A stretch of DNA of 36,633 bases from Coriobacteriaceae bacterium (GCA_013824215.1 PNNM01000003.1:1-36633), one strand, 5' to 3'; counted from the first letter of the stretch, positions 61 to 18,612 are shown. Notes: generated from the sequence alone by a model not told the origin. Numbers and translations: made by a program.

Positions 61-449
61 TCAGTACGCGTACAGCTTGCCGTAGGGGCGGTGGCTCACC
101 GGGACGAGCTTGGTGAACGGCTTCGACAGCACCTCGGCGCAGTCCATGCCGAGAGCCGCGCAGTACTCCTCGAGCACCGGCTTCAGCTCGGCCAGGTCCT
201 CGGCGGAGGCCTCGAACACGCCGACCTCCTTGCCGGTCTGCCAGGGCTCCACCTCGCCGCGCACGTAGATGACGCCGCCGTGCATGCCGGTGCCGAGGTA
301 GCCGCCCACCAGCAGCCCCTCGAACTGGCTGTTCATGCCGAGCAGCACGAGCATCCCTCCGGCCATGTACTCGCCGAAGAAGTCGCGCGCCTTGCCGCCG
401 CAGACCATGGCGGGCACGAGGCCCTCGTACGCCTTCATGTGGATGCCGA
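61..449 (-). pseudogene. 5'-truncated copy (C-terminal ~128 codons) of the glutamate synthase GXGXG-domain subunit gene
   Basis: Translation GIHMKAYEG...YGKLYAY is nearly identical to the C-terminus of 7451..8272; homology stops at 449 and the upstream part of ORF 61..717 is unrelated. Confidence 0.8.
64..449. repeat. Left copy of ~386-bp imperfect direct repeat (partner 7457..7842)
   Basis: Manual alignment at offset 7393: about 32 mismatches (~92% identity), no indels. Confidence 0.95.
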
Positions 450-653
450 TGTTGCCGATACCTCCCTTGAAGTCCTCGCCGCGAGCGCGTGCCTCCGGTC
501 GCGCCTCGGTCTCGACGGATCCCTCGGCGACGAGGCGGACACGAACCGAGATTCGCCGGCAGGCGCCTTGCGATCCCCATGGACATGTTCCGGCGCAACA
601 GCGCTTGGGCATAAGTTCCAGCAGGGCGGCCAGGATGCGAAAGGCGGCCGAAG

Positions 654-3065
654 GTGGTTCCAACCGGTCAGACCTCCGCGGCGAGGTCACGTGGACCCGA
701 TTCGTCGGGAGTCGCACAACACCTCGGGATCGGCGCTGATCCGGCGACCCATGCGGGTCGAGCGCGCCGGGTCGCGGGCGCCGCTGCGATCCTGGTGGCG
801 TGTGTCGGCGTCGTCGTCATGGCCGGTTGGGCCGCGGACGTCCCCGCGCTCACGGCCGTGCTGCCGGACGCCGCTCCCATGAAGCCGATCACGGCGCTCG
901 GGTTCGTTCTCGCGGGTGTCGCCCTGGGCATGCTGGTCCTGCCACGACCCAACCGCTTCACGCGGCTCACCGCCGCGGTCTGCGCGTCGGTCGTGATAAC
1001 GATAGGCGGCATGGTGGTCGTGGAGTACGTTCTCGACCGCGAGTTCGGGATCTGCACAGCCCTCGTCAGGCTGCTCGCATCCGGCGCGGCTTCCGACCTC
1101 GGACAGATGGCGCCCACGACGGCCGTCTGCTTCGTGCTGCTCGGAGTCGCGCTGCTATTACTCGCGTTCGAGCGGCGCCCGCACCTCGCACAGTCCTTGG
1201 CACTGACCGCGTGGCTGGTCGCGGCCACTGCTGCGCTCGGCTACCTATACGTCCAGGAGACGCTGTATCGCGTCGGGCTCTACACCCCGATGGCGGTGCA
1301 TACCGCAGTCGCATTCTTCGTGCTCGCTTCCGGCATCCTGACAGCGCGAGCGGACGTCGGATGGATGGCGTTCCTCACAGGCGACCGTGCAGGAAGTGAC
1401 ATAGCGCGCCGGATCCTTCCGATCATCATCGTCTTCCCCGTGGTCGTCGGCTGGCTCAGGTTGCTGACCGAGCGTGCCGGCCACATCGACACCGCATTCG
1501 GCGTCGCGCTGACGGCCACTGCGAGCGCGACTTCGATGTCCGTCTTCGTTCTTGTCATAGCTAGTCGGCTGAACGCCGCAGACAGCGTGAGACTCGCAGC
1601 CGAGCAGTCCAGCGCCCGGCTGGCAAACATCGTCGAGGCCTCCGACGACGCCATCATCAGTGTGGCGCGCGATCACACGATCGCGAGCTGGAACCCTGGA
1701 GGCGAACGCATCTACGGCTACGCCGCGAACGAGGTGATCGGGCGACCGTTCTCGATGCTGGTCTCCCCGGAGTTGCGAGAGGACGCTGCGTCCGTTCTGG
1801 ATCGCACCCTGGCCGAGGATCAAGTGCAGCACCTTCGAAGGACGCACATGGCCAAGGATGGCCGGCTCTTCACCGCTGACGTCACGTTGTCGCCGATCCG
1901 TGACGCTTCGGGCGCGATCATCGGCCTGTCCGACGTCGTTCGCGACGTCACCCGGGAGGTGCAGTCGCAAGAGGATCTGCGCCGGCGCGAGGAAGCGCTG
2001 GACGCCTTCTTCACGACAAGCCTCGACCTCCTGTGCATCGCGGACACCGGCGGCCGCTTCCTCAGAGTGAATCCCGAGTGGGAGCGCGTCCTCGGATACC
2101 CCGTAGCGGAACTGGAAGGTGGTGTGTTCCTCGACTACGTCCACCCCGACGACATCGCCGCAACCCTCGAGGCCATAGGCAGGCTTTCCGACCAGCAGAA
2201 TGTGGCCGAGTTCGTGAACCGCTACCGGGCCAAGGACGGGTCCTATCGCTACATCGAATGGAGATCGCATCCGGTCGGCGACTTCATCTATGCGGCCGCG
2301 CGTGACATCACCGAACGCAAGGCCGCCGAGTCGGCGCTCAACGAAGCCAACAAGGAGCTGGAGTCCTTCTCGTACTCGGTGTCCCACGACCTCCGCGCCC
2401 CGCTGCGCCACATCTCCGGGTTCGTGGACCTGCTCGAGCAGAGCTCGGCCGGCTGCCTCGACGAGCGCAGCCAGCACTACCTGACCACGATCGCCGAGTC
2501 CGCGCACGACATGGGCGACCTCATCGACGGCCTGCTGACGCTCTCCCGCATGGGCCGCGCAGCACTGAGCATGGAACGGCTGGACCTCGATGGCATGGTC
2601 CGGGAGTACATCGAGAACGTGGACGATGACACGAAGCGACGCGGCATCGAGTGGGTCGTCGGGGAGTTGCCCGCGGTGCGTGCGGACCGGGCCATGATGC
2701 GTCAGGTGCTCTCGAACCTGCTCGGGAACGCCGTCAAGTACACCGGCCCACGCAAGAGGCCGCGCATCGAAGTGGGAACGTATCCGGAGGAAGGCGGGGT
2801 CGCGGTCTTCGTGCGGGACAACGGTGTCGGATTCGACATGGCGTACGCGGACAAACTGTTCGGCGTCTTCCAGCGGCTGCATGACGCCACGGAGTTCGAA
2901 GGCACCGGGATCGGTCTTGCCAACGTGCGGCGCGTGATCAGCCGTCACGGTGGACGAACGTGGGCGGAAGGGGCCGTCGATCAGGGGGCGACGTTCTTCT
3001 TCTCGTTGCCGAACAGGGTCGCGGATCCAGGCCCCGAGGACCATGATGAGGTGGGGAAGTCATGA
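654..3065 (+). CDS. Membrane-bound sensor histidine kinase with two PAS domains (Cph1-like kinase core)
   Basis: Multiple N-terminal TM segments, two PAS domains (SWNPGGERIYGY; VNPEWERVLGY), H-box FSYSVSHDLRAPLRHI, N/G boxes NAVKY, DNGVGF, GTGIGL; start codon uncertain. Confidence 0.9.
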   Translation: MVPTGQTSAARSRGPDSSGVAQHLGIGADPATHAGRARRVAGAAAILVACVGVVVMAGWAADVPALTAVLPDAAPMKPITALGFVLAGVALGMLVLPRPNRFTRLTAAVCASVVITIGGMVVVEYVLDREFGICTALVRLLASGAASDLGQMAPTTAVCFVLLGVALLLLAFERRPHLAQSLALTAWLVAATAALGYLYVQETLYRVGLYTPMAVHTAVAFFVLASGILTARADVGWMAFLTGDRAGSDIARRILPIIIVFPVVVGWLRLLTERAGHIDTAFGVALTATASATSMSVFVLVIASRLNAADSVRLAAEQSSARLANIVEASDDAIISVARDHTIASWNPGGERIYGYAANEVIGRPFSMLVSPELREDAASVLDRTLAEDQVQHLRRTHMAKDGRLFTADVTLSPIRDASGAIIGLSDVVRDVTREVQSQEDLRRREEALDAFFTTSLDLLCIADTGGRFLRVNPEWERVLGYPVAELEGGVFLDYVHPDDIAATLEAIGRLSDQQNVAEFVNRYRAKDGSYRYIEWRSHPVGDFIYAAARDITERKAAESALNEANKELESFSYSVSHDLRAPLRHISGFVDLLEQSSAGCLDERSQHYLTTIAESAHDMGDLIDGLLTLSRMGRAALSMERLDLDGMVREYIENVDDDTKRRGIEWVVGELPAVRADRAMMRQVLSNLLGNAVKYTGPRKRPRIEVGTYPEEGGVAVFVRDNGVGFDMAYADKLFGVFQRLHDATEFEGTGIGLANVRRVISRHGGRTWAEGAVDQGATFFFSLPNRVADPGPEDHDEVGKS

Positions 3066-7450: not shown

Positions 7451-8272
7451 CTACGTATACGCGTAGAGCTTCCCGTAGGGCCGGTGGCTGACCGGCACCA
7501 GCTTCGTGAACGGCACCGAGAGCACCTCGGCCAGGTCCATCCCCTGCGCCGCGCAGTACTCCTCGAGAACCGGCTTCAGCTCGGCCATGTCCTCGGCGGA
7601 GGCCTCGAAGACGCCGACCTCCTTGCCGGTCTGCCATGGCTCCACCTCGCCGCGGACGTAGATCACGCCGCCGTGCATGCCGGTGCCGAGGTAGCCGCCC
7701 ACCAGCGGCCCCTCGAACTGGCTGTTCATGCCGAGTAGCACGAGCATGCCGCCGGCCATGTACTCGCCGAAGAAGTCGCGCGCTTTGCCGCCGCACACCA
7801 TGGCGGGCACGAGACCCTCGTAAGCCTTCATGTGGATGCCGACGCGGTAGCCCACGTCGCCTTTGATGAAGACCCGGCCGCCGCGCATGCCGTAGCCGAG
7901 CACGTCGCCGGCGTCGCCGTGCACGATGACGGTGCCGGCGTTCATCGTGTTGCTCACACCGTCCTGCGCGTTGCCGAAGACCTCGACGGTGGGCCCGTTC
8001 ATGAACATCGCCATGTCGTTGCCGGCGGTGCCGCGGACCTCGATCTTGAGGTCCTTGCCGGTGATCCCGTTGCCGATGTAGCGCTGGCCGTTGACGTTCT
8101 CGAGCACCACCTTCTTGGCGCCGTCGGCGTACGCGCGGCGGACGGCCTCGTTCAGTTGCCGGTAGTAGATGTTCTTGGCATCGATGGTCGCCGTGTCCCC
8201 CTCGCGGGCGACCGGCGGCTCGATCTTGAGGTAGCCGACCTGCGGAACCGTGGGATCCATGACCTGCTTCAT
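7451..8272 (-). CDS. Glutamate synthase GXGXG beta-helix subunit (GltB domain 3 / GlxC-like)
   Basis: Repeated G-x-x-G-x-x-x-G-x-x-M-x-x-G turns (GQRYIG, GDAGDVLGYGMRGG, GEYMAGG); GGAGG RBS. Confidence 0.9.
   Translation of the reverse strand: MKQVMDPTVPQVGYLKIEPPVAREGDTATIDAKNIYYRQLNEAVRRAYADGAKKVVLENVNGQRYIGNGITGKDLKIEVRGTAGNDMAMFMNGPTVEVFGNAQDGVSNTMNAGTVIVHGDAGDVLGYGMRGGRVFIKGDVGYRVGIHMKAYEGLVPAMVCGGKARDFFGEYMAGGMLVLLGMNSQFEGPLVGGYLGTGMHGGVIYVRGEVEPWQTGKEVGVFEASAEDMAELKPVLEEYCAAQGMDLAEVLSVPFTKLVPVSHRPYGKLYAYT
7457..7842. repeat. Right copy of ~386-bp direct repeat (inside the intact GXGXG gene)
   Basis: Matches 64..449. Confidence 0.95.
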
Positions 8273-8289
8273 CTCGCCCTCCCCCTCCC

Positions 8290-9801
8290 CTACATACCCG
8301 CGGGCTTGACGCCCAGGATCCGGCAGGTCTGCTCATCGAGGCCGATGGCCCGCAGGCGCTCGCGCGAGCCGCGCAGAGACTCGACCGCGTTGACGCCGAG
8401 CGCGCCCAGGATCTCCTGCACCTCGTGGCTCCACGCGGAGACGAGGTTGACCAGCCGCTCGGCGCCCCACTCGGGATCGACGCGGCGGGTCAGTTCCGGC
8501 TTCTGCGTGGTGAGCCCCCACGAGCAGCAGCCGGTGTGACAGCCCTGGCACATGTGACAGCCGAGCGCCATCAGAGTCGCGCTGCCGATCGCCACCACGT
8601 CGGCGCCGAGCGCGATGGCCTTGGCCACGTCCGCCGAGGAGCGGATGGAGCCGGCCGCGATGATCGAGGCCTGGTTCCGGATGCCCTCGTCGCGGAGGCG
8701 CTGGTCCACCACGGCCACGGCGATCTCCACCGGGATGCCGATGTTGTCGCGGATGACCTGGGGCGCAGCGCCCGTGCCGCCTCGGAATCCGTCGAGGTAG
8801 ACGTAGTCTGCGCCCGCGCGCACGATGCCGCTCGCGATGGCGGCCACGTTGTGCACGGCCGCGATCTTCACGCCCACCGGCTTGTAGCCGGAGGCCTCTT
8901 TCAGCGAGTAGATGAGCTGGCGCAGGTCCTCGATGGAGTAGATGTCGTGGTGCGGCGCCGGCGAGATGGCGTCGGTGCCCTGCGGGATCATGCGCGTGGA
9001 GGAGACCTGCCGGTCGATCTTCTCGCCGGGCAGGTGCCCGCCGATGCCGGGCTTCGCGCCCTGGCCGACCTTGATCTCGATCGCGGCACCGCGGTTCAGG
9101 TACTCGGGATCCACTCCGAAGCGGCCCGAGGCGACCTGCACGATGACGTTGCCGGCATACGGGTAGAGGTCGGCGTGCAGCCCGCCCTCGCCGGTGTTCA
9201 TCAGAGTGCCGAGGCGCGTGGCCGCCATCGCCAGCGACTTGTGGACGTTCAGCGACACCGAACCGTAGCTCATCGGCGAGAAGATGATCGGCGTCGCCAG
9301 CTCGACGTTGTTGGTCATGCCGGCACCCTCGGCGAGCCGATAGCCTCCGTCGCCGTCGGACTCCACCGACACCGAGTCGGGCTTGCGGCCGAGGTAGGTC
9401 CGCAGCTCCATCGGCTCGCGCAGCGGGTCGATCGACGGGTTCGTGACCTGGCAGGCGTCGAGCACGAGGTGGTCGAAGATGCTCTGGTACGGCTTGTCGT
9501 TGCCCATGCCGGTCAGGAGCACGCCGCCGGTCTCGGCCTGCTTCCAGATCGACTTGCGCGCCGCATCGGACCAGTTGTCGTTGGTCTTCATGGCCAGGTC
9601 GTTCTTCTTGATGGTGATGCAGTGCGCCGGGCAGTACGTCACGCAGCGGTGGCACGCGCGGCACTTCGCGTCATCGGGCAGCGGGCGCTCGTTGAAGGCG
9701 TAGACGCCCCACCCGCACTGCTGAACACAGCGCCCGCACTTGTGGCACTTGTCGTAGTCGATGTCGACCTTGAACTCGGGCTGTATCAGTGTCTGCGGCA
9801 T
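8290..9801 (-). CDS. Glutamate synthase FMN-binding subunit with N-terminal 2[4Fe-4S] ferredoxin (archaeal-type GltB2 / GlxD-like)
   Basis: CHKCGRCVQQC and CRACHRCVTYC; MSYGS, NTGEGG, QVASGRFG, EIKVGQGAKPGIGGHLPGEK, PHHDIYSIEDL; C-terminal Cys cluster; start at MPQTLIQ. Confidence 0.93.
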   Translation of the reverse strand: MPQTLIQPEFKVDIDYDKCHKCGRCVQQCGWGVYAFNERPLPDDAKCRACHRCVTYCPAHCITIKKNDLAMKTNDNWSDAARKSIWKQAETGGVLLTGMGNDKPYQSIFDHLVLDACQVTNPSIDPLREPMELRTYLGRKPDSVSVESDGDGGYRLAEGAGMTNNVELATPIIFSPMSYGSVSLNVHKSLAMAATRLGTLMNTGEGGLHADLYPYAGNVIVQVASGRFGVDPEYLNRGAAIEIKVGQGAKPGIGGHLPGEKIDRQVSSTRMIPQGTDAISPAPHHDIYSIEDLRQLIYSLKEASGYKPVGVKIAAVHNVAAIASGIVRAGADYVYLDGFRGGTGAAPQVIRDNIGIPVEIAVAVVDQRLRDEGIRNQASIIAAGSIRSSADVAKAIALGADVVAIGSATLMALGCHMCQGCHTGCCSWGLTTQKPELTRRVDPEWGAERLVNLVSAWSHEVQEILGALGVNAVESLRGSRERLRAIGLDEQTCRILGVKPAGM

Positions 9802-9803
9802 GG

Positions 9804-11036
9804 CTAGCTCACCTCGACGGTCTCTTCGGCGCACGAGAACTCGGTGCCGGTGACGGCGCACGATAGCGCGGACGGTGACAGGTGCAGGTCGCCGTGGATC
9901 GGCCAGTCCATGCCGGAGACGCGAGCGATGGTGGGCTCGCCGGCCTTCGGCATCCAGACGCGGTCGGGCTCCGGCATGACTGCGCGGATGGCGCTCTCCT
10001 CGGAGGCGACCATCAGCACGCTGCCGGTGCGCGCGGCCACGAGCGGGCGCAGCTTGATGCGGTCGTTCAGCGCCACCATGCCGCCGTTGAAGCCGAGCAC
10101 GATGGCGAAGGGGCCGTTCAGCATGCCCGGGCCGTAGACGGCGCGCAGCGAGCGCAGAAGAGCCTGCTCGTCTTCCGGCATCCGGTCGATCTCGGTCCAC
10201 AGCGGGCTCGCGAGCGCCTTGCAGGCCAGCTCGAGCGGGAGCTTGTGGCGGCGCAGCATCAGGTCGAACAGGTAGGCGGCCACCTCGGTGTCCGTGCCCA
10301 GCGTGCACTTGTAGCCGAACGCCTCGAGATAGCGGCTGTTGATGCCGTAGCTCGAGATCTCGCCGTTGTGCACGATCGACCAGTCGAGCAGCGTGAAGGG
10401 GTGCGCGCCGCCCCACCAGCCCGGCGTGTTGGTCGGGAAGCGGTTGTGGCCGACCCAGGTGTGCGCCGAGTACTCCTCGAGGCGGTAGTAGTGCGCGATC
10501 TCCTCGGGATAGCCCACGCCCTTGAAGGCACCCATGTTCTTGCCCGACGAGGCCACGAACGCGCCGTCGACGGTGCCGTTGATGAGCATGACGGCGTGCA
10601 CGACGAAGTCCTCGGCGCTCTCGTCTCCTGCGTGGAGCTTGTCGGCGTCGGGGCGCAGGAAGTAGCGCCACAACAGCGGGGCGTCGTCGATGCCCTTGAC
10701 CGCGCGCGTCGGCATCGGCTCGGCGAGGTCCACGGCGAAGAAGCGCCCGAGGACCTCCTCGGCGTTCTGCCGCGCTGCGGTGTCGGCGTACATCATGTGG
10801 AAGCAGAAGTGGTCCGCGAACTCGGGGTAGATGCCGTAGCCGGCGAATCCGCCACCGAGCCCGTTGCCGCGGTCGTGCTGTATGGCCAGCGCGCGGATCG
10901 CGATCTCGCCGCCCATGAGCGAACCGGACTCGTCGCAGATGCCCATCAGGCCGCAGCCCCCGTGGATCTTGAACGGCGACTCCTCGCGGAAGCGGCGGGG
11001 GTCGAAGTCCCTGACTGCGTCGATGTCGTACGGCAC
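9804..11036 (-). CDS. Class II (Ntn) glutamine amidotransferase subunit (GltB1 / GlxB-like)
   Basis: CGLMGI after a short propeptide, HDRGNGLGGG, GHNRFPTN, HPF, HNGEI, TDTEV, DRIKLRP, ASEE; GTG start with GAGGAG RBS. Confidence 0.92.
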   Translation of the reverse strand: MPYDIDAVRDFDPRRFREESPFKIHGGCGLMGICDESGSLMGGEIAIRALAIQHDRGNGLGGGFAGYGIYPEFADHFCFHMMYADTAARQNAEEVLGRFFAVDLAEPMPTRAVKGIDDAPLLWRYFLRPDADKLHAGDESAEDFVVHAVMLINGTVDGAFVASSGKNMGAFKGVGYPEEIAHYYRLEEYSAHTWVGHNRFPTNTPGWWGGAHPFTLLDWSIVHNGEISSYGINSRYLEAFGYKCTLGTDTEVAAYLFDLMLRRHKLPLELACKALASPLWTEIDRMPEDEQALLRSLRAVYGPGMLNGPFAIVLGFNGGMVALNDRIKLRPLVAARTGSVLMVASEESAIRAVMPEPDRVWMPKAGEPTIARVSGMDWPIHGDLHLSPSALSCAVTGTEFSCAEETVEVS

Positions 11037-11041
11037 TGCGA

Positions 11042-12361
11042 TCACTCCTCGTCCATCAGGCGGGCGATGACGTCGCCGCCGGACACGGGCAAAGGCGAAA
11101 GGCCGAGCTTGGCGCGGGCGCCCTCCTTGGGCTTGCCGAGCGCTCCGGTCTCGAGGAAGGTGCGGTACGCCGAGGCCACGGACTCGGGTCCGGCCTCGGC
11201 GGCCATGGCGATCTCCTTCAGCTTCCGGAACGCCTCCGCCATGCCGATGTGGCTGTGGCACAGCTCCTGGCACGTGTAGCACTCGAGGCACTTCCACAGC
11301 TGCCCAGCGGCGACCACCTCGTCGATCTCGCCGCGCAGGAGCTGGCCGATGACCTCGGTGGGCTGGAACTCGCCGTCGACGGTACACACCGGGCAGTCGT
11401 CCTTGCACGCCTGGCAGGCGTAGCACTTGCCGAGGAGCGCGACGTCGAAGTCCTTCGCGATGCGCTCCTTGTCCGAGGCGCGCGCTCCCCACTTGGCCAG
11501 GAACGGCTCGACGGAGACGCGGTGCATGTCCAGGCCGATCTCCTCGGGTGTGTGGCCCATGCCGAGCGCGATGAGCTCGGAGAGGAAGAAGACGGGGACG
11601 TGGATGTCCTCGTTGGCGCGCTGGAGCGCGGCCTGGTTCAGGTCGAACTGCTGGAAGCAGCTCGGGCAGACCACCACGAGGGCGTCGACCTCCTCGCGTT
11701 TGAGGTCCTCGAGCTTGCGGCGGCAGAACGCCAGCGCGCCCTCACGCTCGCCCACACGGTCGAGCGCGCCGCCGCAGCACTGCATCTTGGTGGGGTAGTC
11801 GACGACCTTGGCGCCCAGCGCGGTCACGAACTGCTCGACCTTGACCGGGTGCAGCGGGTCGTCCCAGCGCACCGCCGGTTGCGGGCGCAGCAGATGGCAG
11901 CCGTAGTGGACGGCCACGCGCATCCCCCAGAACGGCTTCGTGATCCTGGACGCCACGAGCGCGCTGCCGAGCTCGTCGGTCAGCCACTCGGCGAAGTGCG
12001 TGATCTTGAGGTCGCCGGCGTAGTGCAGGCCCTCGGCGGCGAGCCGCTCGTTGATGCGCTCGCGCGAGCGCCAGTCGGTGGCCAAGTGGCTCGCCGCCTC
12101 GCGGAAGGTCGAGTAGCAGCCGTTGCAGGGAGTGACCACGTCGAGGCCGGCGCGCTCCACGAGCGCCAGGTTGCGGGCGGCGGTGGTGTAGAACGTCTCC
12201 TCGTCAGACGACTTCACGAGCACGCCCTCAGGGCAGCACGTGTGGCCGTCGAGCTCGTGGACGGTGGCGCCGAGGTCGGCGAACGCCAAGCGCGTCGCCT
12301 TCTCGATGAACGGGAAGCGCGCCGGGATGGTGCATCCCCAGAAGACCGCGAAGTCGTTCAT
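11042..12361 (-). CDS. Heterodisulfide reductase-like protein: HdrB (CCG domains) fused to a C-terminal HdrC-like 2[4Fe-4S] domain
   Basis: FWGC, TCCP, TPCNGC, HYGCHLLRP, QCCGG, CPSCFQQFD; then CYACQACKDDCP and LWKCLECYTCQELC. Confidence 0.88.
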   Translation of the reverse strand: MNDFAVFWGCTIPARFPFIEKATRLAFADLGATVHELDGHTCCPEGVLVKSSDEETFYTTAARNLALVERAGLDVVTPCNGCYSTFREAASHLATDWRSRERINERLAAEGLHYAGDLKITHFAEWLTDELGSALVASRITKPFWGMRVAVHYGCHLLRPQPAVRWDDPLHPVKVEQFVTALGAKVVDYPTKMQCCGGALDRVGEREGALAFCRRKLEDLKREEVDALVVVCPSCFQQFDLNQAALQRANEDIHVPVFFLSELIALGMGHTPEEIGLDMHRVSVEPFLAKWGARASDKERIAKDFDVALLGKCYACQACKDDCPVCTVDGEFQPTEVIGQLLRGEIDEVVAAGQLWKCLECYTCQELCHSHIGMAEAFRKLKEIAMAAEAGPESVASAYRTFLETGALGKPKEGARAKLGLSPLPVSGGDVIARLMDEE

Positions 12362-12399: not shown

Positions 12400-12445
12400 G
12401 AACGAAAACGCCCGCCTCGGCCACGTCGATCGGGCCGGGCGAGCG
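12400..12445 (-). terminator. Intrinsic terminator (attenuator) in the operon leader
   Basis: CGCUCGCCCGGCC (12445-12433) pairs with GGCCG-A-GGCGGGCG (12422-12409): 13 bp, one bulge, one GU, followed by UUUUCGUU. Confidence 0.8.
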
Positions 12446-12486
12446 CCATTGCTCGCTTGATGCATGGGCGGCACGCCTTCGTGCCG
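12439..12486 (-). promoter_or_regulatory. ANTAR target RNA: two hexaloop hairpins
   Basis: CGGCAC-GAAGGC-GUGCCG (12486-12469), 12-nt linker, GCGAGC-AAUGGC-GCUCGC (12456-12439); G4 in both loops, A1 in the second; hairpin 2 overlaps the terminator. Confidence 0.82.
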
Positions 12487-12495
12487 GTAACCGAG

Positions 12496-12524
12496 AGTCT
12501 AGCAGGCGCCGTGCCGAGTTGGAA
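12496..12524 (-). promoter_or_regulatory. Putative sigma70-type promoter of the glutamate synthase operon
   Basis: TTCCAA-17 nt-TAGACT with extended -10 TG; start would fall just before ANTAR hairpin 1. Confidence 0.55.
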
Positions 12525-12596: not shown

Positions 12597-13880
12597 CTAC
12601 CGCCCCGAAGGGCTCCGTGCGCCGTAGTGCGCCGCGACGGTGGCGCCGAACGCCTCGGCACGGCGCAGCTCGGTGAAACCCATCGTGGCAGTGCACATGA
12701 CTTCGTGGGGAGGCTCCGGATTGCACACGATCCCGTACTCCTCGGCGCGCTCCCACAAAGGAGTGCCGGGCAGCACGTTGAGCGAGGAGAGCTGCACCTT
12801 GCCCGGATCGAGCGAGAGCAGGTAGTCAAGGCCGGCCGCGAGGTCGTCGGCCGTGTCGCCCGGCAGTCCGACGATGAGATCGCACTCGACGGCGATGCCC
12901 GCCTGCTTGCACGCCTCCACGCCAGCGGAGAAGCGCTCGCGATCGAACCTGCGGTTGCATCGCTCGAGCGTGGTCGCGCTCACGGTCTGGGGCCCGGTCT
13001 CGACCGAGACCACGCCGGCGCGGCGCAGGAGCGCGGCCTCCTCGGTGCCGATCCGCTCGATGTCCACCTCGATCGTGTGGAGCCGCACGCCCTGCCTCGC
13101 CCACGGCTCGAGGACGTCGCCGAGCCATTCCAGCCGCTCGCGGGTGAGATTGAAGACGGGGTCGATGAAGGACAGGCTGCGCGCTCGCCCGGAGCCGGCG
13201 ATCGCCTCGATCTCCGCCGCGACACGCTCCTGCGAGAAGTAGCGGATGCGATCGTAGCCCTTACCCTCGTAGCAGTACGCGCAACTCCTCGGACACCCGC
13301 GATACGTCTCGATGTAGGTGAGATCGCCGTGTGCTCCGAGCAGACCGCTCGCATACGGGGAGGGGATCGAGTCGAGATCCGCGATGAGCGGACGCGCGGG
13401 AGCGGAGACGACCCCGTCGTCCCGGCGGGTCGTCACGCCGTCCACGTACCACAAGCGTCCGCCATGGAGCATCGCGCCGAGCAGCTCCGCGAATGTCTCC
13501 TCGCCCTCGCCGCGCACGATCGTGTCGACGTACGGATGCGTCTCGAGTATCTGCTCGGCCATGGGACTGACCTCCGGCCCGCCCAGCACGATGTGGATCC
13601 CGGGAGACGTGCGCTTCACGATGGAGCACACCTGGTAGATATGCTGGGCGTTCCAGCACTTGACGGACATCCCGAGGACATCGGGCTCGAGCCGCAGTAT
13701 CCGATACGCCACCCACCACGGGTCCATGTCGCTGTCGAGATCCAGCGTCATGAAGCCGACGCGCCCCGCGAGCCGGGGCGCCTGCTCGGCGTACGCACGC
13801 ACGTACCCGAGGGCGAGCGACTGATGCCCGGGGGCGTTGAGGGCGACGAGCGCCACCTTCAGGTCCGGCGTCGCGCTCAT
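12597..13880 (-). CDS. Cobalamin-binding radical SAM protein
   Basis: N-terminal B12-binding-like domain (SLALGYV, LGGPEV, RGEGE), YRGCPRSCAYC, LIVGLPGDT, PGTPL. Confidence 0.9.
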   Translation of the reverse strand: MSATPDLKVALVALNAPGHQSLALGYVRAYAEQAPRLAGRVGFMTLDLDSDMDPWWVAYRILRLEPDVLGMSVKCWNAQHIYQVCSIVKRTSPGIHIVLGGPEVSPMAEQILETHPYVDTIVRGEGEETFAELLGAMLHGGRLWYVDGVTTRRDDGVVSAPARPLIADLDSIPSPYASGLLGAHGDLTYIETYRGCPRSCAYCYEGKGYDRIRYFSQERVAAEIEAIAGSGRARSLSFIDPVFNLTRERLEWLGDVLEPWARQGVRLHTIEVDIERIGTEEAALLRRAGVVSVETGPQTVSATTLERCNRRFDRERFSAGVEACKQAGIAVECDLIVGLPGDTADDLAAGLDYLLSLDPGKVQLSSLNVLPGTPLWERAEEYGIVCNPEPPHEVMCTATMGFTELRRAEAFGATVAAHYGARSPSGR

Positions 13881-14596
13881 CTCGCCGCTCCCGCGCCGAG
13901 CAATTCCACCGGAGGCCTCGCGTAGAGCCCCTCGGCACACTCGCCGGTCCCGACCGTGCACACCCACGCGCCGGACACCATCCCCGTGTCGACGGCGGCC
14001 TCGACCCAGGGGAGCGCCTGCGATCCGAGGGATGCGCGGGACAGATCGAGCGCGATGCTGCGGACGCCGTTCTGCGCGAGGGCGAGTACGGCCCCCGGAA
14101 GCGCCTGCAGGTTGTGCGCGCAGACGGGGACGCGCCCGCAGAGGATGTGCGGTGCCGACAGCGCGTCGAACGCCTCGCCGAGCGCACGCATGCCGGCCAG
14201 CGCCCTCTCGAACGAACCGGGACGGCCGGACAGGGAGTCGTGCGTCATCGCGTCCCCAGCCAGGACCGTGACCCGGACGTGTGTCACACCCTCGTCGGCG
14301 ACCATGCTCGCGATCCCCGGCCTCGACAGCGCCTCTCCCGCGGTCACCACACACAGGCGCTCGACCCCGAGCTCCATCACCGCGTGGATCAGCCGGCCTG
14401 CTTCCGGATGCTCGAGGGGGTCCGGCCCGACAAGCGTCAGATTCGGCCCCGGGCCCGCGGACCACGCGTCGACGATACAGCGCGCCCGCTCGACGATCCG
14501 CTCGACGGGATCGTAACTGACGTCCTCTTCGGCCGAGCACCGCAGACAGGACACGGCATCGCCTGCGCCGACCGGCACGGCGCCGAACTTGATCAC
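13877..14596 (-). CDS. Radical SAM-fold protein with degenerate cluster motif
   Basis: GDAVSCLRC in place of CxxxCxxC, GPDPLEHP (GGEP-like), VTAG (TNG-like), HDSLSGRPGSFERALAG; GTG start with GGGAG; ATGA overlap with next gene. Confidence 0.7.
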   Translation of the reverse strand: MIKFGAVPVGAGDAVSCLRCSAEEDVSYDPVERIVERARCIVDAWSAGPGPNLTLVGPDPLEHPEAGRLIHAVMELGVERLCVVTAGEALSRPGIASMVADEGVTHVRVTVLAGDAMTHDSLSGRPGSFERALAGMRALGEAFDALSAPHILCGRVPVCAHNLQALPGAVLALAQNGVRSIALDLSRASLGSQALPWVEAAVDTGMVSGAWVCTVGTGECAEGLYARPPVELLGAGAAR

Positions 14597-14783
14597 TCGA
14601 AAGACTCCCAGCCTCGGAGGGAACACGTCACGAGAGGCCGAAGATGGGCGAACGACCCCTATGTTACACGGGCGGCCGGCTGCCTGCGCCAGCTTTGGAA
14701 GCGACGCGGCCGGTCCGTGTCCCCGTTCGCTGCAGCGGGTAAGAGCCGTCATGGACACGGGCGCCCGTGACAGGGAGGCGGCC

Positions 14784-15614
14784 ATGGGAAGCGACACGCT
14801 CGTCATCGCGCAGTTCTCGGACTTCCACTGCGGGGACGCGAGGTTCGACCCCCGCCTCATGCGGGCGGTTGTCGACGAGATCGTCGAGCTGTTACCGGAC
14901 CTGGTCGTGGTACCGGGGGACCTCACCGAGCAGGGCTATCTCGACCAGTTCGTCGACGCGCGCAGCTGGCTGGAGCAGCTCGAGTGTCCGAACGTGGTCA
15001 TCGTCCCGGGCAACCACGACGCCCGCAACGTCGGCTTCATGCACTTCGAGACGCTGTTCGGCCAGCGGTTCTCGAGCACGCTCCTGCCGTACGGCGAGGG
15101 AGGCGCGCGCGCGGCGCGCGTCGTGGCCGTCGACTCCAGCCGGCCCGATCTGAACCAAGGCGAGATCGGGCGGGACCGCTACCGGTGGCTGTTCGACCAG
15201 CTGACCGAGGAGGACGACGCGGTCCGGATGCTCGTGATGCACCATCACCTCGTCAGTGTCCCGGGCACGGGGCGAGAGCGGAACATCCTCTGGGACGCCG
15301 GCGACGTGCTGCAGATACTCTCCGAGTGCCGCACCGACCTCGTGCTCGCCGGACACAAGCACGTGCCGTACGTGTGGCAGGTCAACGGCATCGTCATCGC
15401 CACGAGCGGGACCGCCGCCACGCGACGGACGCGCGGCCGCACGCCGCCGTCGTTCAACATCGTGCGAGTCACGCCGGAGGAGATACGCGTGACCATGCGC
15501 AACACCGGTCAGTCCACGGGGCGCGAGACGGTGTTCCCACGGCGACCTGAGATCGCGGTCGGCGGCACCGCTCGACGGGGCGCGACCGAACCGGGCGTGG
15601 CGATGAAACTGTAG
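14784..15614 (+). CDS. Metallophosphoesterase (Icc/CpdA-like)
   Basis: SDFH, GDL, GNHD, HHH, GHKH motifs; GGAGG RBS. Confidence 0.9.
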   Translation: MGSDTLVIAQFSDFHCGDARFDPRLMRAVVDEIVELLPDLVVVPGDLTEQGYLDQFVDARSWLEQLECPNVVIVPGNHDARNVGFMHFETLFGQRFSSTLLPYGEGGARAARVVAVDSSRPDLNQGEIGRDRYRWLFDQLTEEDDAVRMLVMHHHLVSVPGTGRERNILWDAGDVLQILSECRTDLVLAGHKHVPYVWQVNGIVIATSGTAATRRTRGRTPPSFNIVRVTPEEIRVTMRNTGQSTGRETVFPRRPEIAVGGTARRGATEPGVAMKL

Positions 15615-16469: not shown

Positions 16470-17045
16470 CTACGGCTCGGCCCCGGCCTCGGCGGCGAGC
16501 ACGACGGCCTCGGCGATCTCCCGCAGCGTCTTGCGCTTGTCCATCGCGAGCTTCTGCAAACGCCGGAACGCGTCGGGCTCGCTCAGTCCCCCGGCCATGA
16601 GCACGCCCTTGGCGCGGTCGACGGCCTTGCGCGTCTCGAGCCGCTCGTTCAGGTCCGAGATCTCCTCGGCGAGTGCTCGGGCCTCGGCGAAGCGGGCCGT
16701 GGCGATCTCCATGGCCGGGAGCACGTCGGCCTTGGTGAACGGCTTGACGACGTAGCCCATCGCACCGGCCTCCGTGGCCTGCCTGACCACGTCGGCTTGC
16801 GAGAACGCCGTCACCATCACCACCGGCGCCAGCTGCTCCTCGCCGATGACGCGCGCGGCCTCCAGCCCGTCCATGCCGGGCATCTTCACGTCCATGAACA
16901 CGATGTCGGGTCGCTTGTCGCGCGCGGCCGAGACAGCTTCGGCGCCATCGCGTGCCTCACCCACGACCTCGTGGCCCTCCTCCTCCAGCATCTCGCGCAG
17001 GTCCATGCGGATGAGGCCCTCGTCCTCGGCGATGATCACGCGCAT
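16470..17045 (-). CDS. pdtaR: REC-ANTAR response regulator (PdtaR/EutV-like antiterminator)
   Basis: IIAEDE, FMDVKMP, YVVKPF; ANTAR RKAVDRAKGVLM...SEPDAFRRLQKLAMDKR. Confidence 0.92.
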   Translation of the reverse strand: MRVIIAEDEGLIRMDLREMLEEEGHEVVGEARDGAEAVSAARDKRPDIVFMDVKMPGMDGLEAARVIGEEQLAPVVMVTAFSQADVVRQATEAGAMGYVVKPFTKADVLPAMEIATARFAEARALAEEISDLNERLETRKAVDRAKGVLMAGGLSEPDAFRRLQKLAMDKRKTLREIAEAVVLAAEAGAEP

Positions 17046-18526: not shown

Positions 18527-18612
18527 GCCCGGGTGGCGGAACGGCAGACGCAGAGGTCTCAAAAACCTCCGGGGGAAACCCCGTGTGGGTTCGACTCCCA
18601 CCCCGGGCACCA
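18527..18612 (+). tRNA. tRNA-Leu (CAA)
   Basis: Acceptor GCCCGGG/CCCGGGC+ACCA, anticodon arm GAGGT-CTCAAAA-ACCTC, long variable arm, T-arm GTGGG-TTCGACT-CCCAC. Confidence 0.97.

Follow-up and report, generated by a model that had tools for sequence, protein, structure and literature searches.

An HdrB-HdrC-like fusion protein as the probable electron-entry subunit of a split glutamate synthase in Coriobacteriia and other anaerobes

The operon located on the minus strand (12361..7451) of a 36,633-nucleotide contig from a Coriobacteriaceae bacterium (GCA_013824215.1 PNNM01000003.1:1-36633; this whole stretch of DNA is referred to as the window) probably encodes a split glutamate synthase of four subunits, in which a protein combining HdrB- and HdrC-like parts of heterodisulfide reductase (Hdr) would serve as the electron-entry module. 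We assign this reading a probability of about 0.7. It is built on the observed gene content, cofactor motifs, fold and strict synteny, on the exclusion of GltD, and on the presence of nitrogen-assimilation neighbours. An earlier note on this DNA had suggested that the Hdr-like protein is a dedicated electron-supply partner of the enzyme, and both the conserved linkage of the genes and the distribution of GltD speak for that suggestion.

Ammonium enters biomass mainly through glutamate synthase (GOGAT). NAD(P)H or ferredoxin is the donor in the enzymes characterised so far, F420 has been proposed as a donor for methanogens, and for the split archaeal-type enzyme the question of the donor has, to our knowledge, never been settled. 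The fourth, Hdr-type subunit is encoded without GltD across a phylogenetically wide set of anaerobes, including most sampled genomes of the order to which the window belongs, other classes of Actinomycetota and, by the names of relatives, archaea of the ANME-2/Methanoperedens type, which points to an undescribed electron feed into nitrogen assimilation. The enzyme family itself is known; the electron-input subunit is new, and the class of donor perhaps as well. In the full-text literature, supplementary tables apart, no account of split gltB genes accompanied by an Hdr-like subunit was found, and the available part of a 2021 review states merely that open reading frames (ORFs) for individual GltS domains occur in Archaea (PMC8097209).

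Gene content of the operon and properties of the encoded proteins

The window is contig 3 of a metagenome-assembled genome (MAG) of 1.24 Mb in 146 contigs, which is 73% complete. A six-frame ORF listing with inspection of start codons gave four co-oriented ORFs in the order fusion-gltB1-gltB2-gltB3 (lengths in amino acids, aa):

11042..12361, minus strand: HdrB-HdrC-like fusion, 439 aa; two CCG domains, then a 2x[4Fe-4S] ferredoxin domain
9804..11045, minus strand: GltB1-like class-II (Ntn) glutamine amidotransferase, 413 aa from GTG 11045; alternative GTG 11036
8290..9801, minus strand: GltB2-like subunit, 503 aa; PF01645 452.7 bits; Fer4 matches residues 9-74
7451..8272, minus strand: GltB3-like GXGXG (beta-helix) subunit, 273 aa; PF01493 110.3 bits, cut-off 32.5

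The intergenic gaps are, in this order, -4 or 5 nucleotides (nt), 2 nt and 17 nt, and the GTG start of gltB1 at 11045 overlaps the TGA of the fusion gene. A family scan of the 27 other ORFs of the window detected no Pyr_redox_2, Fer4_20, FlpD, HdrA-like or gltD-like ORF. The earlier note had described four co-oriented, closely spaced genes in a window with no gltD or hdrA; the ORF listing with its Pfam and NCBIfam assignments agrees with the former statement, and the scan of the further ORFs with the latter.

The fusion protein matches PF02754 (103.6 bits) and the 4Fe-4S dicluster family PF13183 (30 bits). It scores 262.3 bits against the HdrB profile TIGR03288, covering positions 2-289 of 290, and 47.3 bits against the HdrC profile TIGR03290, while canonical HdrB proteins from six hdrA2CB loci reach 307-369 bits on the HdrB profile. 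Residues 310-380, in the ferredoxin part, align to the N-terminus of the GlpC profile, and the CCG part (residues 7-239) aligns to the C-terminal part of the GlcF profile, which bears out the claim that the CCG domains come first and the 2[4Fe-4S] domain second, the reverse of the order in HdrD. All 18 cluster cysteines, ten in the CCG domains and eight in the ferredoxin domain, are invariant in 26 sequences sharing 30-50% identity, and the CCG domains presumably bind two noncubane [4Fe-4S] clusters. Among sequences in the PDB, the first 290 residues of the fusion match HdrB (8rvu_b, E 3.1e-64) and residues 304-391 match HdrC (9sfi_E, E 1.2e-10). Similarly, the AlphaFold2 model of the fusion (pLDDT 91.1, pTM 0.82) was aligned by Foldseek with HdrB at a target TM of 0.93 and an rmsd of 1.7-1.9 A (1.7 A for 8rvy_B), and with HdrC at a target TM of ~0.6.

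A library-wide search with the fusion returned 3,454 relatives at E<=0.001, among which ~35 full-length B-C fusion clusters (31-52% identity) outrank plain HdrB proteins. The closest relatives of the window's fusion carry names such as Coriobacteriia and Anaerosomatales, and the source annotations of fusion relatives read 'heterodisulfide reductase subunit B', '...-related iron-sulfur binding cluster' or 'hypothetical'. On the FastTree of HdrB parts, 49 fusions lie within a clade of 66 members (support 0.92), and all eight HdrB proteins encoded as separate genes beside hdrC lie outside it. Monophyly of the fusions is unsupported, as the remaining 17 members nested in this clade are unfused HdrB representatives.

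All parts of a glutamate synthase are recognisably present and intact in the operon. GltB1 matches GATase_2 (PF00310) with 34.1 bits at a cut-off of 19.9, and its nucleophile cysteine, within the motif G-C-[GAS]-[LIV]-x-[GA], is found in 25 out of 25 orthologues, two of which begin with Met-Cys and the rest with short leader peptides. GltB2 begins with a 2x[4Fe-4S] ferredoxin domain and further comprises what is left of the central domain, the domain for flavin mononucleotide (FMN) and 2-oxoglutarate (2-OG), and a four-cysteine cluster motif; it matches solved GltB chains with E 4.6e-66. Across 25 sequences with a mean column identity of 73%, twelve of its cysteines are invariant (C19, C22, C25, C29, C47, C50, C53, C57, C415, C418, C421 and C426). 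Three of these, C415, C421 and C426, align with the three ligands of the [3Fe-4S] cluster of the solved GltB 7mfm_G, whereas C418 (window ~8548-8550) is an extra invariant cysteine at a position where the solved GltB has methionine. Because of this replacement, the FMN-proximal cluster of GltB2 is likely [4Fe-4S] rather than [3Fe-4S]. Finally, gltB3 was found after gltB2 in every locus long enough to show both genes.

Conservation of the gene order

The gene order was examined in three samples. The first comprised 80 genome-contig loci with fusions 69-79% identical, for which neighbours were identified by tblastn. Here gltB1 directly follows the fusion gene in 79 loci, the 80th (L048) ending at the fusion; all four genes are present in order in 59 loci, and contig ends truncate the remaining 21. 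The second sample was a phylum-wide set of 401 genomes, in which full-length fusions were found in further families; the order is kept in 14 of 14 distant Actinomycetota loci with 43-62% fusion identity, one of them being cut inside gltB1. The third was a metagenome scan seeded with distant fusion representatives, where gltB1 follows the fusion in 68 of 80 loci, that is, in all 68 true fusions with downstream DNA. Among the remaining 12, six contigs end within ~200 bp of the fusion; the other six, considered as possible exceptions to the order, were ruled out as canonical hdrA2-hdrC-hdrB operons that do not carry a fusion. Identity of the fusions among loci that keep the order goes down to 35%. 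Since the order is conserved in all informative related loci, the linkage between the fusion and the gltB genes is far beyond chance. The earlier note had proposed a survey for hdrBC fusions beside gltB1-3. No hdrA-like gene occurs inside the four-gene unit in the loci of the three samples.

The linked metagenome contigs include some with 33-48% G+C and with archaeal-looking flanks (TrmB, geranylgeranyl reductase). Close relatives of the fusion from one of them, L119, are named ANME-2, Methanosarcinaceae, Candidatus Methanoperedens, Candidatus Argoarchaeum and a few Clostridia; this taxonomy of distant carriers comes from few source names, with L119 as the sole low-GC fusion searched, and Atlas taxa serve as a lead only. 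In distant loci the operon is adjoined by nitrogen-assimilation genes: glnA in L113, L119, L123, L124 and L166, amt in L108, L123 and L124, and the P-II gene in L123 and L124. None of the three was found among the 27 ORFs scanned in the window itself.

On the archaeal-looking contigs, ordinary hdrC and hdrB genes adjoin the fusion-gltB operon (L119 461-5802, L113 8933-10505, L108 11736-13288). In L119, hdrC, hdrB and an hdrA/mvhD gene (an HdrA/MvhD fusion) are located directly upstream of the fusion and are preceded by glnA, and in L113 and L108 hdrC and hdrB are located just downstream. These genes would fit re-reduction of a heterodisulfide made by the enzyme, and coincidence is equally possible.

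Distribution of GltD, fused GltB and alternative input modules

We surveyed 201 Coriobacteriia genomes, taking as GltD any match to TIGR01317 over the NCBIfam cut-off of 447.7 bits. Nearly all families in the order of the window have the fusion, as do two further families. It was not found in three other families, f22, f24 and f25 (0/19, 0/47 and 0/2 genomes), where the PF01645 match lies in a frame of ~1,550-1,640 aa corresponding to a fused GltB; in the window's order this frame is ~503-530 aa. GltD exceeds the cut-off in 59 of the 201 genomes, and all matches listed belong to the fused-GltB families and are located ~2 kb from gltB. In the window's order, none of the matches listed is over the cut-off, the best reaching 274.6 against 447.7 bits. 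The anticorrelation with gltD, which the earlier note had named as a check, was thus observed among the matches listed. Nearly every genome of the window's order that has a PF01645 match shows a single one, and in the genome of the window the operon's gltB2 is the only strong match, two others having 28.6 and 19.5 bits. One genome of the same family, G039, was considered as an exception lacking the fusion and was rejected, its contig ending ~230 bp upstream of gltB1.

The genome of the window contains several other genes of related families. Its best GltD-like gene adjoins a gene for a 279-aa oxidoreductase (contig C2, L004 451-2735) that is NfnA/SudB-like as judged by its sequence; the pair looks like NfnAB rather than a small subunit of GOGAT. 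On contig C4 (14112-24939, L193), a Wood-Ljungdahl cluster (CooC-like, FolD, CdhD-like, CooS, AcsB and CdhD/AcsC-like) is followed by genes for a 671-aa GltD-like-Fer4-MvhD fusion and a MetV-like protein. NuoF-like genes are also encoded. At the start of contig C13 (15-1334, L194), a second CCG protein of 439 aa, GlpC/TfrB/LdhH-like, is encoded beside a Crp-family regulator; no ferredoxin domain was detected in it, and it is unrelated to the fusion.

Among Coriobacteriia there are also split gltB1-3 clusters with other arrangements. In L090 (9370-11190) and L092 (6503-8336), genes for a 151-157-aa Fer4_11 protein and a 454-459-aa Pyr_redox_2 protein are located between gltB2 and gltB3. L089, L091 and L093 have split gltB1-3 without an adjacent partner gene, and two of these partner-less clusters are located beside a glutamine synthetase gene. 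On a tree of GltB2 proteins, the 25 fusion-linked sequences are separated by one branch (support 100/99) from the five unlinked sequences, all of the latter from the single class Coriobacteriia. The electron-input subunit of GOGAT looks exchangeable, because L090 and L092 carry the Fer4_11 and Pyr_redox_2 genes and an FrhB-like subunit has been proposed for methanogens.

Proposed electron path and alternative explanations

From these observations we infer the formation of a complex, the direction of electron flow and the donor. GltB1 would hydrolyse glutamine, GltB2 would catalyse the FMN-dependent reductive amination of 2-OG, and GltB3 would provide the GXGXG structural domain. The HdrB-HdrC fusion would be the fourth subunit, in the place of GltD (NAD(P)H) of bacteria and of the FrhB-like subunit (F420H2) proposed for methanogens. 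Electrons would enter the HdrB part at a substrate site located at its two CCG-bound clusters and move to the two [4Fe-4S] clusters of the HdrC part, by which the fusion is predicted to dock onto the ferredoxin domain of GltB2; they would then pass through the two [4Fe-4S] clusters of that domain and the Cys4 cluster to FMN and 2-iminoglutarate. A complex prediction for GltB2 and the fusion, with a 25-row alignment for each, gave scores of 0.01 and 0.02 at a mark of 0.32 and speaks neither for nor against binding.

Several points weigh against this reading. The HdrB part of the fusion stays under the curated equivalog cut-off of TIGR03288 (262.3 vs 345.15 bits), and the 17 unfused HdrB-size representatives inside the fusion clade of the quick FastTree are of unknown context. 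With the MAG 73% complete, a gltD gene of the same genome could be missed, although complete relatives argue otherwise. GltB2 has a ferredoxin domain of its own, and since its relatives in L089, L091 and L093 have no partner gene nearby, ferredoxin alone may be enough and the fusion not strictly required. Finally, bacteria are not known to make coenzyme M (CoM-SH) or coenzyme B (CoB-SH), and a thiol donor in Actinomycetota would be another compound.

As to the donor, the most specific suggestion, which we hold at less than even odds, is a thiol pair oxidised to a disulfide, which would be HdrB chemistry in reverse by analogy with TfrB. TfrB, a subunit of thiol:fumarate reductase, is an HdrB-type CCG module that oxidises CoM-SH and CoB-SH and feeds a flavoenzyme. 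The pair might be CoM-SH and CoB-SH in Methanosarcinales and ANME, and a low-molecular-weight or protein dithiol in Actinomycetota and Clostridia, and two electrons would travel through five Fe-S clusters to FMN. The potentials are estimated at ~-0.07 V for glutamine and 2-OG to two glutamates and -0.14 V for CoM-S-S-CoB; given these estimates, a thiol-driven reaction is feasible, and couples at or below -0.14 V would suffice.

It seems unlikely that ferredoxin is a sufficient donor by way of the GltB2 ferredoxin domain and that the fusion is an accessory, for example one passing surplus electrons to a disulfide or gating the enzyme as a thiol/redox sensor. The eight invariant cysteines of that domain would suit such a role, as would the partner-less gltB1-3 clusters (L089, L091 and L093) and the ferredoxin-linked metabolism of the organism (Wood-Ljungdahl cluster, NfnAB-like genes). 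However, an accessory gene is unlikely to be always first in the operon at every informative locus in both bacteria and archaea, an accessory partner would not be expected to go with a separate lineage of GltB2, and the ten invariant CCG cysteines suggest a working substrate site. A further possibility, which we regard as decidedly improbable, is that the fusion wires the enzyme to an HdrA-like flavoprotein whose gene lies elsewhere, so that glutamate synthesis would replace heterodisulfide reduction as the exergonic, high-potential arm of flavin-based bifurcation. No hdrA-like gene lies inside the four-gene unit in the loci examined, no FlpD or Pyr_redox_2 ORF was found in the window, and docking to the ferredoxin domain of GltB2 is the simpler reading of the HdrC part; on the other hand, hdr genes occur beside the fusion in L119, L113 and L108, the genome encodes the GltD-like-Fer4-MvhD protein and NuoF-like genes, and HdrC joins HdrA to HdrB in canonical HdrABC, according to the available part of one source (PMC9012536).

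The operon might also encode an enzyme other than glutamate synthase. Triads of GltB domains also build N-methylglutamate synthase (MgsABC/GlxBCD-like), which is encoded beside methylamine genes and is redox-neutral, having no Fe-S chain; the modest GATase_2 score of 34 bits could likewise be taken to indicate a member of the GltB family with some other amine or oxo-acid as substrate. We consider this alternative, raised in the earlier note, highly improbable in view of the neighbours glnA, amt and P-II, which tie distant loci to nitrogen assimilation, and of the 12 invariant Fe-S cysteines of GltB2, which together with the Hdr-like module would be needless for a redox-neutral methyl transfer. 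In addition, these genomes have no strong PF01645 gene besides the operon's gltB2, the gene order amidotransferase-FMN-GXGXG repeats the domain order of GltB, and no methylamine-pathway genes were found among the 27 window ORFs, a scan that included no family-specific model.

Comparison with known systems and implications

The predicted enzyme shares with GltBD the Ntn amidotransferase, the FMN/2-OG domain with its FMN-adjacent cluster and the GXGXG domain. In contrast to GltBD, the large subunit is split into three genes, GltD is absent with the Hdr-like fusion in the place of the donor subunit, and GltB2 has the additional N-terminal 2x[4Fe-4S] domain and the fourth cluster cysteine, C418. 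A split or archaeal-type GOGAT with an adjacent non-GltD input subunit is also found in FGltS-I/II of methanogens, a putatively F420-dependent enzyme. In the available parts of the sources, methanogen GOGAT is proposed to work with FrhB-like subunits and FGltS is described as putative (PMC3448663, PMC3087415, PMC9012536); the input there is FrhB/FdhB-like (F420, FAD), whereas no flavin- or F420-binding domain was detected in the fusion. The operons of L090 and L092 share the gltB1-B2-B3 core and come from the same class, but their module sits between gltB2 and gltB3 and their GltB2 proteins fall in the unlinked clade.

Compared with HdrABC, the fusion retains the HdrB and HdrC sequence, the fold and all cluster cysteines, but it joins B and C in one chain, its operon lacks HdrA, and its HdrB score is below the cut-off. 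TfrB provides the model for a thiol donor, and the fusion matches its profile NF004898 weakly (70.3 bits), far under the cut-off of 385; it also departs from TfrB in domain order and in the enzyme that accepts the electrons. HdrD, GlcF and GlpC similarly combine a ferredoxin dicluster with CCG domains in one polypeptide, but there the ferredoxin domain comes first, whereas in the fusion the CCG domains do.

If the thiol proposal is true, nitrogen assimilation would draw directly on the heterodisulfide/thiol pool. This would be a fourth class of GOGAT donor after NAD(P)H, ferredoxin and the proposed F420H2, and the second natural case, after TfrAB, of HdrB chemistry in the oxidative direction. 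The proposed electron-entry function would also offer a possible role for many bacterial HdrB/HdrC homologues in organisms without a known heterodisulfide, and would correct the annotation of the fusion protein as 'heterodisulfide reductase subunit B' or 'hypothetical'.

Leader RNA and ANTAR-dependent regulation

The operon is preceded by a candidate regulatory RNA, and genes for a two-component system are located further upstream. The corresponding features are:

12401..12504, minus strand: operon 5' leader, ANTAR-type antiterminator/terminator switch, backed by covariation
12485-12470, minus strand: leader hairpin P1, loop GAAGGC
12455-12440, minus strand: leader hairpin P2, loop AAUGGC
12444-12410, U-run to 12401, minus strand: leader terminator, the 5' arm of which overlaps the 3' arm of P2
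16470..17045, minus strand: ANTAR response regulator; PF00072 102.3 bits, PF03861 74 bits
17047..18486, minus strand: PdtaS-type histidine kinase with GAF_PdtaS, HisKA_2 and HATPase_c; partner of the ANTAR regulator

The leader has an extended -10-like box TGCTAGACT. Its motif was found in 89 of 172 loci, 69-219 nt ahead of the fusion start. Every one of these 89 belongs to the group of 108 loci that have 56% or more identity to the fusion of the window, and the motif was found in none of the 64 more distant loci. Among 64 distinct sequences, P1 and P2 are 96.6% paired with 40 double-change cells, a level reached by 0 of 500 shuffles, and for the base of the terminator the figures are 100% pairing and 19 double-change cells; covariation thus supports both alternative folds. 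In 64 out of 64 sequences, the P2 loop starts with A and its fourth base is G; the P1 loop of the window starts with G, not A. No listed Rfam model matches the leader at the gathering threshold, the sigma-70/terminator consensus scan did not pick up its terminator, and the single-sequence fold is indistinguishable from shuffles (z -0.23).

Tandem hairpins with hexaloops carrying A at position 1 and G at position 4, the second hairpin overlapping an intrinsic terminator, are the features of ANTAR substrates, and the leader possesses them apart from the first base of its P1 loop. This fits the published description in the part of the source available, which also mentions ANTAR substrates next to the glutamate synthase genes of Desulfotomaculum reducens (PMC3369931). 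Orthologues of the PdtaS-type kinase and the ANTAR regulator were identified on the strand of the fusion and upstream of it, the regulator often directly next to it, in 56 of the 80 genome loci and in 14 of the 80 metagenome loci. The ANTAR response regulator at 16470..17045 likely regulates the leader, and antitermination there by an ANTAR response regulator probably turns on the operon in Coriobacteriia. In the window, four genes separate the two-component genes from the operon. Among the genes of this region are a B12-binding radical-SAM gene (12597-13895, minus strand) and a radical-SAM-like ORF with a weak AhbD-like match (13877-14926, minus strand). The B12-radical-SAM gene has tblastn matches in 0 of 80 genome loci and looks like a lineage-specific insertion.

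Other features of the window

At the start of the contig, a 218-aa ORF (61-717, minus strand) has a weak GXGXG match of 30.7 bits (cut-off 32.5) and no NCBIfam match; it may encode another protein of the GXGXG type, truncated where the contig ends. A tRNA gene at 18527-18609 (plus strand) is the sole Rfam match at the gathering threshold in the window.

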